Of a stretch of 64,000 bases of DNA, positions 22,664 through 25,839 are shown piece by piece. The stretch is taken from contig CBDHDG010000007.1 of assembly GCA_965261595.1 (NCBI GenBank), positions 128,001 through 192,000 on the forward strand, read 5' to 3'. Origin of the DNA: a bacterium (GTDB taxonomy: Bacteria; UBA8248; JACPRG01; G963555815). Both the position numbers and the translations under genes were made by a program. The notes under the pieces are model-generated. The model worked only from the letters and a program-made list of their open reading frames with translations. It ran no database searches and was not told the origin of the DNA. Position 1 is the stretch's first letter. Every line of letters begins with the position of its first letter.

Positions 22664-23266
22664 TCAGTACTTTCTCAAGATTCCCACCACGATGCCCTGA
22701 ATCTTGAACTCGCCGTCCCGGACGATGATGGGCTCCATCGTGGGGTTGGCGGGTTGCAGGCGCACATGGCCGTTCTCGCGGTAATAACGCTTGAGGGTCG
22801 CCTCGTTTCCATCCAGGAGGGCGACGACGGTTTCTCCGTTGTTGGCGGTTTTGCGCTCTTCGATGATGACGAAGTCGCCGTCCTCGATGTGGTCGTCGAT
22901 CATCGACTGGCCCTTCACCTGGAGGACGTAAAGATTTCTGGCCCCGGCCTCCGTCCACGGGAGGGCGATGGTGGTCGGATCCAGGACGGCTTCCAGGGGG
23001 GTCCCGGCGGCGATGTAGCCCATCAGGGGCAGCTCCCGCACAGGCTCCGGCTCCCTCCCCTCCAGGACCTCGATGGAACGGCTGCGGTTCCAGCCCCGCT
23101 TCATGAGTCCCTTCTCGATGAGGTTGAGGATGTGCTTGTGCACTGTGGCGGGGGAGGCCAACCCGAAGCCCGCCCCGATCTCCTCCAGGCTCGGAGAATA
23201 ACCTTTTTCCTCGATGAACTCTTTCACAAAATCCAGTATCTGGCGTTGTCGTTTTGTCAGGTACAT
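22664..23266 (-). CDS. lexA: SOS repressor LexA
   Basis: N-terminal wHTH LTKRQRQIL..PSLEEI; AAG cleavage site, GQSM catalytic Ser, TLK catalytic Lys. Confidence 0.96.
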   Translation of the reverse strand: MYLTKRQRQILDFVKEFIEEKGYSPSLEEIGAGFGLASPATVHKHILNLIEKGLMKRGWNRSRSIEVLEGREPEPVRELPLMGYIAAGTPLEAVLDPTTIALPWTEAGARNLYVLQVKGQSMIDDHIEDGDFVIIEERKTANNGETVVALLDGNEATLKRYYRENGHVRLQPANPTMEPIIVRDGEFKIQGIVVGILRKY

Positions 23267-23400
23267 CGTTCAATCCTCTCTTTCGGTAAAACCCGAACCG
23301 CTTTGAAAATCCAACGACGGCCATCCATCCAGCGACTTTTTTTCAGCTTGTCCCCATCTTCGCTCAATATACGACGAAATGGCCACGAAAGTAAAGCCCC

Positions 23401-23453
23401 AAAAAAAATCCCCGGCGAAGGAATCGAGAAGTCCGCGCCTTGCCGGGGATTTT
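23401..23453 (-). terminator. Intrinsic terminator (possibly bidirectional)
   Basis: AAAATCCCCGGC(G)AAGG...CCTTGCCGGGGATTTT stem; A8 on + gives a U-tract on -. Confidence 0.75.
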
Positions 23454-23510
23454 CGGTGGTGCCGACGAGATTAGCCTGGGCGCCTGCCCGGCCAACACCA
23501 GGTCAGGTCG

Positions 23511-23555
23511 TCAGACCTCGGCCACCTCGCGATCACTACATGAAGATTTCTTCAA
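23511..23555 (-). CDS. Candidate 14-aa small ORF MKKSSCSDREVAEV within a short transcript
   Basis: TTG start 2 nt after AAAGGAGGTGATC; own promoter and terminator; not in the ORF track. Confidence 0.5.
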   Translation of the reverse strand: MKKSSCSDREVAEV

Positions 23556-23584
23556 ATGATCACCTCCTTTCCCGCGTTACCGGA

Positions 23585-23614
23585 AACTTAAGGGGTGCGG
23601 ACCCGTTCTGTCAA
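23585..23614 (-). promoter_or_regulatory. Sigma70 promoter driving the small transcript
   Basis: Minus strand TTGACA (23609-23614)-18 bp-TAAGTT (23585-23590). Confidence 0.6.
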
Positions 23615-23814
23615 GCCTAAATATGGAAACGTCCAGATGCTTGAGAAAACTATTCGCTTTGAAATCAGATAGATCGCATTAAAAACTTAGAGCCCCTCTT
23701 GACCTTTTACATGAGCCTTTGTTACCTTTCAGACGAAGATGGTTTGTTTCTTGCTGTTCGTAGTACGGAGAACGCATGTACGATCGCCGCTCGGATGATT
23801 CTCAGAGGGGAAAA

Positions 23815-25839
23815 ATGAATCCCATGCGACTCCGATCAAAGAGGGCGCTCCTGTCCTTCTTCGCGCTGTTTTTCTTTTTCATGTTGGGGCGTCCGAGCCT
23901 CGCGCATGAGCCTTTCCAAACCCCCAAGGGGCTGGAAAGCAGCGTCGATTTCTGGATCAAGGTGTTCACGCGGTACAAACGAAATCAGGCCGTCGTTCAT
24001 GACACGGAAGATCCAAGCCTGATCTACGATGTCGTCAACCTGGACGGCGCCGGAGGCCCAAGCAGCTCCCGCGTACGGTGGCGGAGGGCCAGACGCGCCC
24101 GGGAGCGTTATGCCCGCCTGTTCCGCGCTTGGTCCGTTTCCCCTCCCCGGCCGCGGGACCTGTCGCGGAAGGAACGCCGGATCATCCGGGCCCTCCGGAA
24201 GCGCCGATACAATTTATCCAAAGCGTCCCGAAACGTTCGCGCCCAGCAGGGTGTGCAGGAAAAGTTCCGCGATGGGATCATCCGATCCGGGCGCTATCTC
24301 AGCCGTATGCGGCGCGTTTTTCTCGACTATGGTCTTCCGCCGGACTTGACGTATCTTCCCCACGTCGAATCCTCTTTCAACTACGAGGCCTATTCCAAAT
24401 TCGGGGCGTCGGGGGTCTGGCAGTTCACCCGGTCGACGGGGCGGCTTTTCCTGAAGATCAACTACGATATCGATGAGCGCCGGGACCCCATGCTCGCCAC
24501 GCACGCGGCGGCCAAGCTCCTGCGCCGGAACCACAAAGAGCTTGGAACCTGGCCCCTGGCGGTCACGGCCTATAACCACGGACGCGCGGGGATGGCGCGC
24601 GCGGTCCGCCTCCACCAAACCCGACACCTCCCGACATTGATCCGGAAATACAGGAGCCGGACGTTCAAGTTCGCGTCGAAAAACTTCTACGCCGAATTTC
24701 TGGCGGCGCGAATCGTCGCCAAGAACGCGCGGCGGTACTTCGGGCCCCTGCGGGAGAGAAAACACTCGCGGGATCGGGTCTTCCGGCTCCCGGCCTACGT
24801 TTCCGTGGAGACGCTGACCAAAATTTCACCCGTCACCCTTGAGGAGATCCAACGTTATAATCCGGCGCTCAGGGGTCCGGTTCTTCGGGGAGAGCGCCGA
24901 ATCCCGAAGGGTTATCTTCTGCGTTTGCCCGCGCGGAAAACGAAGGACTTCCGCCGGCGCTACGCCTCCATGTCCGCCTCGCTCAAGCACGCCGATCAAA
25001 AACGCATTCGGTGGTATCGCGTCAGGCGGGGAGAGACCCTCGGGGCGATTGCCCGGCGTTTTCGCATGTCGGTTCGGACGCTGGCGTCCGTCAACAACAT
25101 CCGAAACACCTCCCGGGTCCGCGCGGGCATGATCATCTCGATTCCGGGCTCGCGGCGGACCGCCGCCGCCAGGCCGGCTCAACGGAAACGCCGGATAACG
25201 AACGCCCGGCTCCGGGCCGCCGCCGCACCGGCCGTGAAACGGCCCGAGGCCAAACCCGCGCGGGCCGTCAAAGCCCTTGAGCCCGCGCCCCGGGTGATCA
25301 GCCCGGCCGTCTCATCGCGGTCCGCCCGGACGAACGGGACGGAGAATGGGAATCAGACGCGGCCGGAGTGGAGGGAAAGGGATCTCTCCCCGGTCCACGT
25401 AACCGGTAAGTCCGGCAAGCAAGGCTGGACGCGCGTGGAGGCGGAGGAAACCCTGAGCCATTTCGCCAAATGGCTGGATGCCTCGAAGCGCGTCCTGCGC
25501 CGGCTGAACCGGATGGGGCGAAAGCAATCCATCCGGATGGGGCAAAAGCTGAAACTCACGTTCCGCAGGGTCAACCCGGAGGAATTCGAACAAAGCCGGC
25601 TGGAGTATCACAAGAGCCTGGAGGATGATTTCTTCGAGACCTACCGGATTGTCAGGACCTTCCACCACACCATTCGGAAGGGGGAGAGCCTTTGGGGCCT
25701 CGCCCGCGAAGTTTATGAAGTTCCATTCTGGATCATGGCCCACTATAATCCGGGGTTATTCAACTCGAGCGTGGCCGTAGGGGTCAAGGTCACGTTTCCC
25801 GTGGTGGTTCCCAAAGGGCGAAAGACATCCGGAAACTGA
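23815..25839 (+). CDS. MltD-like lytic murein transglycosylase with LysM domains
   Basis: LPHVESSF catalytic Glu, GASGVWQF, TAYNHG; LysM YRVRRGETL and HTIRKGESLW; start 23776 or 23815. Confidence 0.9.
   Translation: MNPMRLRSKRALLSFFALFFFFMLGRPSLAHEPFQTPKGLESSVDFWIKVFTRYKRNQAVVHDTEDPSLIYDVVNLDGAGGPSSSRVRWRRARRARERYARLFRAWSVSPPRPRDLSRKERRIIRALRKRRYNLSKASRNVRAQQGVQEKFRDGIIRSGRYLSRMRRVFLDYGLPPDLTYLPHVESSFNYEAYSKFGASGVWQFTRSTGRLFLKINYDIDERRDPMLATHAAAKLLRRNHKELGTWPLAVTAYNHGRAGMARAVRLHQTRHLPTLIRKYRSRTFKFASKNFYAEFLAARIVAKNARRYFGPLRERKHSRDRVFRLPAYVSVETLTKISPVTLEEIQRYNPALRGPVLRGERRIPKGYLLRLPARKTKDFRRRYASMSASLKHADQKRIRWYRVRRGETLGAIARRFRMSVRTLASVNNIRNTSRVRAGMIISIPGSRRTAAARPAQRKRRITNARLRAAAAPAVKRPEAKPARAVKALEPAPRVISPAVSSRSARTNGTENGNQTRPEWRERDLSPVHVTGKSGKQGWTRVEAEETLSHFAKWLDASKRVLRRLNRMGRKQSIRMGQKLKLTFRRVNPEEFEQSRLEYHKSLEDDFFETYRIVRTFHHTIRKGESLWGLAREVYEVPFWIMAHYNPGLFNSSVAVGVKVTFPVVVPKGRKTSGN

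Follow-up and report, generated by a model that had tools for sequence, protein, structure and literature searches.

The window analysed here is a 64,000-nucleotide stretch of bacterial DNA (GTDB lineage UBA8248; JACPRG01; G963555815; NCBI GenBank assembly GCA_965261595.1, contig CBDHDG010000007.1, positions 128,001 to 192,000 of the forward strand), and positions are counted from its first letter. Between lexA and a divergent LysM/SLT gene there is an RNA gene at 23401–23577 on the minus strand, which is added to the annotation. It comprises a Shine-Dalgarno (SD) site complementary to the 3' end of 16S rRNA, an open reading frame (ORF) of 14 codons that is interlocked with several helices, and an intrinsic terminator. 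The element does not represent a new kind of RNA, but belongs, as a divergent copy from another phylum, to the known and uncharacterised family Ms_IGR-5 (Rfam RF02471, 'Actinobacteria sRNA', i.e., small RNA). It was interpreted, with moderate confidence, as a single-copy gene of that family acting as a translation-gated 'mini-mRNA' riboregulator. The parts of the element and its neighbours, in the order in which the minus strand is read, were as follows.

23776, beginning of the gene, divergent: LysM/SLT gene, recognised by Pfam search.
23609..23614, minus strand: -35 box TTGACA of the element's own promoter (direct reading), invariant as CTTGACA in five of five same-family genomes.
23585..23590, minus strand: -10 box TAAGTT, after an 18-nt spacer; its TAA is kept in five of five same-family genomes (alignment A1).
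23401..23577, minus strand: predicted transcript of ~177 nt, its start placed at the A residues 23578/23577 and its end at the U-tract.
23573..23576, minus strand: 5' strand of helix P1, CGCG, with its partner at 23528-23531; 93.9% paired.
23558..23571, minus strand: SD site GAAAGGAGGUGAUC, a 14-nt complement of the 3' end of the genome's own 16S rRNA.
23570-23558, minus strand: the 13-mer AAAGGAGGTGATC within that site (direct reading).
23555-23553, minus strand: TTG start codon (direct reading).
23511..23555, minus strand: ORF of 14 codons plus stop, TTG to TGA (TGA at 23513-23511), peptide MKKSSCSDREVAEV.
23528..23531, minus strand: 3' strand of P1, CGCG, covering codon 8 plus the initial G of codon 9.
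23518..23526, minus strand: 5' strand of helix P2, GGUGGCCGA, inside the ORF (codons 9-12) and containing a second SD-like box, GAGGUG.
23512-23517 with 23473-23478, minus strand: helix P3, GGUCUG with CAGGCU, from minimum-energy and consensus folds; its 5' strand holds the first two bases of the stop codon.
23512-08, 23502-498, 23479-75 and 23468-64, minus strand: the letters GACGA, CCTGG, CCAGG and TCGTC, respectively (direct reading).
23466..23472, minus strand: unpaired conserved stretch AAUCUCG, within the family motif GGCGAAUCC, here GGCUAAUC (alignments A3 and A5).
23455..23465, minus strand: 3' strand of P2, UCGG-CA-CCACC, from duplex search and covariation.
23401..23453, minus strand: intrinsic terminator, a long GC-rich hairpin followed by U8 (T8 in the DNA).
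23366..23395, minus strand: promoter-like site of lexA, TTTACT-18-TATATT, with the direct repeat TTTCG-N6-TTTCG; conserved in five of five same-family genomes.
22664..23266, minus strand: lexA, the neighbour outside the element (Pfam LexA_DNA_bind, 2.6e-18; Peptidase_S24, 3.3e-29).

All of the sequence features listed in the first-pass annotation, which was made from the letters alone, were found on the minus strand between 23401 and 23614. Its TTGACA-18-TAAGTT promoter was borne out to the letter, with a -35 box that is invariant in the five same-family genomes; the TTG start with its 14-codon ORF, the GC-rich terminator with U-tract (a hairpin and T8 at 23453–23401) and the position upstream of lexA (23266–22664) were likewise confirmed. 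The stand-alone transcript that it proposed was retained as a unit, with a predicted length of ~177 nt instead of ~190 nt. For the stem-loop that it drew between GACGA and TCGTC and between CCTGG and CCAGG, the letters are present and the pairing was rejected, being in conflict with P2 and not kept in the same-family genome G003. Homologues of other families also carry TTGAC(A/G) at an equal distance, and one GC pair of the terminator stem has become AU, with compensation, within the family. A simple scanner for promoters and terminators called neither the element's own promoter nor its terminator, the -10 box being weak and the terminator stem irregular with a long loop.

Seven metatranscriptome (RNA-library) runs contain part of the stretch, and contigs of four were placed on the window. 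Three of these, each from a different study, fall within the element and show 0 differences from it: a single contig of X1 (first study) at 23411–23562, a single contig of X2 (second study) at 23413–23574, and a contig of X3 (third study) at 23435–23563, which has adapter sequence at both sides. The flanks were uncovered by any contig of X1 to X3, and there was none over 23578–23800 and none across the terminator, which proves nothing either way. The contigs support expression of the element; their boundaries are a hint only.

The 16S rRNA of the same genome ends in ...GGAUCACCUCCUUUCU, and so the 13-nt anti-16S site reported previously at 23558–23570 is a real complementarity, which runs to 14 nt. 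The 13-mer AAAGGAGGTGATC was found once in the window, where 0.04 matches were expected, and 4 of 100 shuffles contained any match at up to one mismatch. The 6.17-Mb genome has three occurrences, namely that of the element, one antisense to the 16S gene and one within a long ORF; the element's copy is the sole intergenic one in those 6.17 Mb. The other copy in the sense orientation (G000, C6:977987) lies within the long ORF (..LKEVIFAYPTHASDV..) and is not intergenic. Across homologues the complement of the 16S tail measures 13–16 nt and is essentially invariant, being the most conserved part of the RNA; its core AAGGAGGUG (in a few cases AGAGGAGGUG) is shared by 47 of 48 distinct homologues, and only L181 deviates, with AGGGAGGUG. 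When the 177-nt RNA was folded, the SD core AAAGGAGG had a mean predicted unpaired probability of 0.83, while the SD tail UGAUC and the start codon were predicted to be paired in a local hairpin. The RNA is predicted to begin ~7 nt before the site, placing it within ~10 nt of the 5' end.

A complementarity of 13–16 nt, which is far beyond the need of translation and is the most invariant part of the RNA, and its position within ~10 nt of the predicted 5' end, both speak for a ribosome-binding RNA that is not translated. The 30S subunit would then be captured for stabilisation of the 5' end, or for titration or parking of ribosomes, and the ORF would be incidental. Such a stabilising role is played by the STAB-SD of the Bacillus cryIIIA mRNA, which the element resembles in having a GAAAGGAGG-type sequence near its 5' end, extended complementarity to the 16S 3' end and possible protection by a ribosome. 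It differs in that the STAB-SD, which sits in the leader of a long mRNA, is not known to be followed by a start codon, while the element has a conserved start codon and ORF and no downstream cistron. Given the behaviour of the ORF among homologues, described below, capture of ribosomes without translation was judged unlikely.

The genome contains one copy of the element by BLASTN and by a covariance model, R1, that was built from five same-family sequences. BLASTN produced strong matches in four relatives, at 94, 85, 83 and 80% identity, which span from ~23577 to just past the T-run. In the five-sequence alignment A1, the sequence upstream of the -35 box was unconserved and the sequence from ACGCGGG on was nearly invariant; between genera, conservation was confined to the -35 box, a portion of the -10 box and the region from ~23577 through the terminator. 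Of 51 species genomes in the class of the window, 41 gave a single full-length match to R1, and the search at the level of the phylum covered these same 51 genomes. A broader model, R2, that was built from all groups matched 44 of the 51 at E <= 0.001, one of them weakly, and gave one additional, false match (G013). The searches did not find the element in two genomes of the same family, each of 2.1 Mb, in the one genome each of families f3 and f4, or in three of the f2 genomes (completeness 87–99%). The comparison with related genomes that the first-pass annotation had suggested was thus run, and showed that the order of SD site, ORF and hairpin is conserved, with a single copy in 41–44 of the 51 genomes.

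R2 also identified the element beyond these genomes. One copy was present in each of five further Actinomycetota (5/5), and 57 of 121 sampled genomes of the phylum to which the Nocardia genome (G052) belongs were matched, 56 of them once; six of the genomes are unpublished. Since that phylum is larger than 51 genomes, the phylum of the window is a different one. A Terriglobia genome contained one copy, as did a Thermoanaerobaculia genome, where it has a 14-codon ORF and a terminator. On short contigs of a 1.4-Mb metagenome-assembled genome (MAG) labelled 'Verrucomicrobiales' there are two copies that resemble those of Acidimicrobiia; this MAG may be a mixed bin. R2 found no match in one genome each of Synechococcus, Oscillospiraceae, Saprospiraceae, Desulfobacterales, Burkholderiales and Dormibacteraeota, which is no evidence of absence from those groups as a whole. 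A match in a Planctomycetaceae genome (E = 7e-4) was judged to be false, as the open frame runs on. Among the 80 loci listed by a loose pattern scan most were coincidences within coding sequence, while at least about eight were true homologues (L014, L017, L019, L026, L037, L057, L069, L088), in addition to L049, which is genome G004. BLAST matches of 29 nt in many genomes of genus g7 were rejected as chance likeness inside a long, GC-rich coding frame (..SEREVAEVW..), and the same place recurs as the false R2 match in G013; this stretch (L007 and L008, 1501–1529) is 90% identical to window 23537–23509, and REVAEV also ends the window's mini-ORF.

No match to any Rfam family was obtained for the whole window at the gathering threshold, and the near-matches that permissive settings returned in 23200–23850 were hairpin look-alikes on the terminator stem only. 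The relationship to Ms_IGR-5 emerged from the homologues. R1, which was built from sequences of the window's family only, matched the sister family at E-values of roughly 1e-13 to 5e-3, with one match per genome, and two Acidimicrobiia-type copies at roughly 5.6e-5 and 5.8e-4; copies of the latter type (L014, L026, L037, L057, L069, L088) have their parts in the same order as the window's element. From the other side, RF02471 matched the Acidimicrobiaceae copy L014 over the whole model (27.8 bits) and was listed at the coordinates of the element in 14 of 18 loci of the window's phylum. Two of these, at 55.1 and 47.5 bits, lay above the gathering cut-off, an operational threshold of 45 bits; others scored 43.4, 42, 37.4 and lower, and the same-family genome G003 scored 29.1 bits. 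All five actinomycetotal genomes searched (Streptomyces, Nocardia, Micromonospora, a Mycobacteriales MAG and Actinacidiphila) gave one match above the cut-off, each with a 12-codon ORF (e.g., MYVHRTREVAVR and MVSFRIREVTAG).

Homology to RF02471 could therefore be traced by independent models through intermediates, and the architecture is shared. The RF02471 consensus contains GGAAGGAGGUGGUCC, GAGGUGGCUG, GGCGAAUUCC and CAGUCACC, as well as a 12-codon frame, and the unpaired AAUCUCG stretch belongs to it also. In A5, a 33-sequence alignment, the shared parts are a 5' SD-like GGAGGUGRUC, a loop closed by P1, GAGGUG-P2, GCGAAUYCC before the 3' strand of P2 and a terminal hairpin. The order of parts in both is 5' end, P1, GGAGGUG(A/G)UCC, start codon, short ORF, GAGGUG-P2 and stop codon, followed by a variable tip, GCGAAU(U)CC, the 3' strand of P2 (..CACC) and the terminal hairpin. 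Both are single-copy, the element is probably, like Ms_IGR-5, a stand-alone transcript, and the 12-codon ORF of Ms_IGR-5 has the length seen in the sister family of the window's family. The window's copy differs in having 14 codons with a UUG start and a UGA stop, in reading GGCUAAUC, as does its family, where the motif is GGCGAAUCC, in ending with a plain intrinsic terminator that has no nested GUCC-loop hairpin, in adjoining lexA, and in belonging to a phylum other than the namesake of the family. It was very probable, on these grounds, that the element is a stand-alone RNA gene homologous to Ms_IGR-5; as it scores below the cut-off, it is called a divergent homologue and not a member at the level of the model. 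The statement that the element could not be assigned to a named RNA family was accordingly replaced, through the 14 of 18 phylum loci, by a divergent relationship to RF02471. A match to an Rfam family is the very observation that the first-pass annotation had named as contrary to novelty, and it removes the idea of a wholly new RNA.

Several reports describe Ms_IGR-5 as an expressed RNA. IGR-5, situated between MSMEG_5794 and MSMEG_5795, carries an NAD cap with +1A and has been described as "validated but yet uncharacterized" (bioRxiv 10.1101/2021.12.14.472595), and it was detected again in M. smegmatis as ncMSMEG15794c (PMC10454040). Homologues of MS_IGR-5 had "significant ribosomal reads" in ribosome profiling (Ribo-seq) of M. 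abscessus and M. smegmatis (PMC4974804). In Streptomyces, Ms_IGR-5 was validated by RNA-seq in S. lividans (PMC8079986) and accounts for one of the two sRNA transcription units with an Rfam match in S. avermitilis (PMC8780764). The available portions of this literature carry no mention of the anti-16S site or the ORF, which may be in print elsewhere, and a search for a named M. tuberculosis counterpart of Ms_IGR-5 returned nothing usable.

The secondary structure was evaluated with A5, the sequences of which come from four groups; 11 unambiguously aligned pairs of P1 and P2 were counted, and L017 was excluded because the partner of its P2 was uncertain. P1 corresponds to columns 9–12 with 57–60 (window 23576–73 with 23531–28), and P2 to window 23526–18 with 23465–55. 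Over 11 pairs and 33 sequences, 95.0% of cells were paired, compared with 77.0% in shuffles, and 70 cells were changed on both sides, compared with 23.9; none of 500 shuffles produced a covariation score as high as that observed, and only 25–40% of cells paired when the partner strand was slid. P1 and P2 were paired in 92–100% of cases, and compensatory change affected 6 of the 11 pairs. In P1 the pair types vary with compensation (GC/AU/CG, UA/CG/AU/GC and CG/GC among the 33 sequences). Minimum-energy folds did not locate the partner of P2 for several sequences and a duplex search was used instead; this located the partner strand in all sequences tested, and compensatory changes were seen at three positions. 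A separate count over 48 distinct cores agrees with the covariation of P1 and P2. The equivalent of P3 in the sister family is CGUC/GGCG and its register differs in Actinomycetota, from a reading of A5, owing to which P3 was not relied on. The fold energy of the 177-nt RNA was -79.4 kcal/mol, and that of a 190-nt version -85.9 kcal/mol (z = -4.41 against shuffles).

A further hairpin was observed in the Acidimicrobiia-type copies L014, L026, L037, L057 and L088, ~20–60 nt after the 3' strand of P2, with the loop YYGGUCCY. This loop could pair with GGACC in the 3' strand of P2 (CUCGGACCACC) as well as with the GGGAC/AGGAC that immediately precedes the 3' strand of P1, being complementary to both, which hints at a pseudoknot or at alternative pairing. 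A GUCC loop occupies the same place in the Rfam consensus of Ms_IGR-5, and the window's family is without this hairpin.

The ORF was kept in all 30 homologues of the window's phylum, having 14 codons from TTG or ATG to TGA in family f1, to which the window belongs, and 12 codons from ATG to TAG in family f2. In 48 of 48 distinct homologues there was an in-frame start (ATG or TTG) 7–12 nt past GGAGG, followed by 12, 13 or 14 codons, and a stop 15 nt after GAGGUG. A workable start distance, an open frame and a structurally fixed stop in every homologue count against an RNA that binds the ribosome without being translated. So does the persistence of the ORF across loops that cannot be aligned: shuffled loops yielded a comparable ORF in 5–18% of trials, against 16 of 16 representative lineages in reality, where the 16 rows are related and the loops of the four deep groups are not mutually alignable. 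Length variation points in the same direction, since the spacer between GGAGG and the start shifts by single nucleotides (7, 9, 10, 11, 12), while the distance from the start to GAGGUG changes by threes only (21, 24 or 27 nt). Finally, L191, an actinomycetotal copy (G068:C18:128171-128363), has on our own reading a 14-codon ORF with TTG at the usual distance, in a frame one base off GAGGUG, and its stop is shifted alike, i.e., start and stop moved together to another frame. On the side of the untranslated RNA, the ORF shows no codon periodicity, its peptide differs between phyla, and many of its conserved 'codons', GAG GUG included, are accounted for by P2.

If the frame is translated, the 12–14-residue peptide might itself be the product, with the RNA structure serving stability and very high translation. 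Within the window's phylum M-K-x-x-C-(R/S)-D-E-V is kept in most copies; from a reading of A1, the three differences between the ORFs of the window and G006 are all synonymous; and a very strong SD site suits the need for many copies. These facts favour a micropeptide gene. Between phyla only E-V is common (e.g., MKKSSCSDREVAEV, MKIHCRDEVTGA, MSNSDGTLEVAER, MYVHRTREVAVR, VSLDRHGLPEVASS), and its codons, GAG GUG, form the strand of P2; several of the non-synonymous changes in family f1 are compensatory for RNA pairing; L191 uses another frame over the same region; no gene for maturation or export is conserved in the neighbourhood; and the peptide is hydrophilic and very short. A micropeptide gene was accordingly considered improbable. 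Of the SDREVA peptide, the conservation of which was raised in the first-pass annotation, only E-V holds between phyla. It was concluded that the reading frame appears to be under selection, while the peptide sequence largely does not.

The interpretation of the element as a dual-function or ribosome-binding sRNA, put forward previously, stands as a possibility insofar as there is a probable stand-alone transcript with a maximal SD site and a short ORF that is apparently selected. Dual-function sRNAs such as SR1/SR1P of Bacillus subtilis are similar in being small stand-alone transcripts that combine structured RNA with a short ORF. In the known examples the peptides have ~26–50 residues and a function of their own, and base-pairing takes place in a separate region; the element differs, as its ORF has 12–14 codons, its peptide is unconserved between phyla and the ORF makes up half of the conserved helices. 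Three other classes were considered and rejected. The 6S RNA of the genome lies elsewhere (C7:230542-230723, 85.6 bits) and there is no 6S match in the window. Transfer-messenger RNA (tmRNA) was dismissed because ARAGORN finds no tRNA or tmRNA at the locus, there is no Rfam tmRNA match, and the ORF has an SD site and a start codon. The mRNA of a type I toxin was dismissed because the peptide is charged and hydrophilic, not hydrophobic.

The first-pass annotation had also suggested an attenuator, in which translation of the short ORF decides whether the terminator is read through into lexA. In five of five same-family loci the element immediately precedes lexA on the same strand; a short ORF, overlapping hairpins and a terminator resemble classical attenuators; and the contig of X4 (23200–23396, over lexA, from the study of X2) extends just past the U-tract, upstream of the predicted -10 box. 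The likeness to a leader peptide of the trpL type extends to an SD site, an ORF of ~14 codons ending in a hairpin, and a U-tract terminator thereafter. The element differs from the trpL type in having no conserved downstream operon and no tandem regulatory codons (MKKSSCSDREVAEV contains no tandem amino-acid repeat beyond KK and SS, neither of which is conserved in the sister family), and in constituting a separate gene in several phyla. When LexA of the window was used as a tblastn query, lexA was seen to follow the element at 5 of 30 homologous loci, all five in family f1; at the other 25 the downstream gene is another and varies, those of family f2 including a YtoQ-like gene, a glyoxalase, an amidase, a uroporphyrinogen decarboxylase (URO-D), a helix-turn-helix (HTH)-cupin protein and others. 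Moreover, a promoter-like site (TTTACT-18-TATATT) that is conserved in the family separates the terminator from lexA, no contig bridges the terminator, and in other phyla the family is a stand-alone sRNA. Since lexA is downstream only in the window's own family and the neighbours differ elsewhere, the attenuator reading fails and is now very hard to credit; from the comparison of loci, the element is not a leader or regulator of lexA, and a false link to SOS regulation is removed from the annotation.

Some further observations were made on the surroundings. The end of the X4 contig, at 23396, is ~25 nt upstream of the predicted -10 box of lexA and, coming from lexA, 5 nt short of the U-tract; its extension could be due to terminator read-through, to another start site or to DNA in the library. 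In five of five same-family genomes, the direct repeat TTTCGT-N5-TTTCGT is found in the spacer that separates the -35 from the -10 box of the promoter-like site of lexA. Across the genome, TTTCG-N6-TTTCG has 32 matches against 4.9 expected, and 11 of these are embedded in promoters (TTGA..TTTCGT..TTTCGT..TATAT; e.g., C6:1149931, C7:1179743, C7:738600). No claim is made for this repeat as a mark of the SOS regulon, as the identifiable downstream genes (a major facilitator superfamily (MFS) transporter, a CoA-transferase and transposase HTH proteins) are not SOS genes. At f2 loci (L132–L153) there is a divergent tRNA gene 90–550 nt upstream in 15 of 15 cases, for tRNA-Ser(GGA) in 11 and tRNA-Cys(GCA) in 4, and at L145 a signal recognition particle (SRP) RNA gene and dnaX are also adjacent. 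The ORFs of the phylum keep a Cys codon and those of the window's family have Ser codons also; the adjacency to tRNA genes is possibly a mere clustering of RNA genes. Outside the window, G000 contains 17 near-identical copies of GAGAGTTAGGATTTTCGCACGGCTTTCGGG... (e.g., C7:339395, C5:498789), 16 of which are followed by a 93-codon ORF. By the likeness of similar ORFs that match Pfam HTH_Tnp_1, this repeat looks like a multicopy insertion sequence.

Returning to the translation-gated riboregulator, binding of the ribosome and translation of the element are likely, and a sequence of steps can be proposed. The 30S subunit would dock on the exposed 16S-complementary site, in the loop closed by P1, and open the small hairpin masking the UUG start codon; the ribosome would then translate the 14 codons. 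As the last six codons and the stop make up the 5' strands of P2 and P3, translation would unzip the long middle hairpin and free its conserved 3' strand (GGCUAAUCUCG UCGGCACCACC), and the hairpin would re-form once translation terminates. The 5' strand of P2, GAGGUGGCC, nearly repeats the SD site, and its partner therefore resembles the tail of 16S rRNA; the freed 3' strand could pair with the real SD site and limit re-initiation. Because the peptide is not conserved between phyla, it would not be the product, and translating the ORF is probably of greater importance than what it encodes. The output would probably be at the level of RNA, which would switch with translation or sense free ribosomes. 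This switching mechanism is a tentative proposal, which was considered possible and on the doubtful side.

Several considerations weigh against the interpretation as a whole. Concerning the gene itself, TAAGTT agrees with the -10 consensus at 3 of 6 positions only, and the RNA-library contigs indicate presence, not ends or strand, and might derive from DNA in those libraries. Concerning the family, the window's copy is below the 45-bit cut-off and was not listed by RF02471 at E <= 10 or at E <= 1, the best matches of that model in the whole genome lying elsewhere (12.2 and 11.2 bits); because it was missed, its membership depends on the chain of homologues and on the shared architecture. The E-values from R1 and R2 are rough, and matches of R2 within the groups from which it was built arise in part by construction. 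Concerning the mechanism, the minimum-energy fold of the window's RNA favours the local hairpin (-79.4 kcal/mol) over enforced P1 and P2 (-76.3 kcal/mol), and three-base periodicity was looked for in the variability of the ORF and none was found, so that it has no classical protein-coding signature. The switching step, the alternative pairing of the SD site and any target in trans are inferences, and the ribosome footprints are those of mycobacterial relatives.

The family was formerly just one of many uncharacterised 'actinobacterial' sRNAs, and its reach now extends beyond that phylum. What is new here is this reach across phyla, the single-copy pattern, and a core that consists of an anti-16S site and an ORF of fixed length interlocked with helices; for the RNA with ribosome footprints in mycobacteria this provides a testable idea. 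In its most general form, which is speculative and rather unlikely, the element would be a housekeeping-like, ribosome-read 'mini-mRNA' riboswitch, in which a full-length anti-16S site loads one ribosome and an ORF of fixed length (12–14 codons, with an arbitrary peptide) opens a helix that mimics the pairing of SD and anti-SD, found once per genome in no fewer than three phyla (that of the window, Actinomycetota and, with two genomes, Acidobacteriota). If this were true, the RNA would report or buffer free translational capacity, or expose a conserved strand that acts in trans, and it would represent a class of regulator for which the input is the act of translation, and neither a peptide nor a small ligand.

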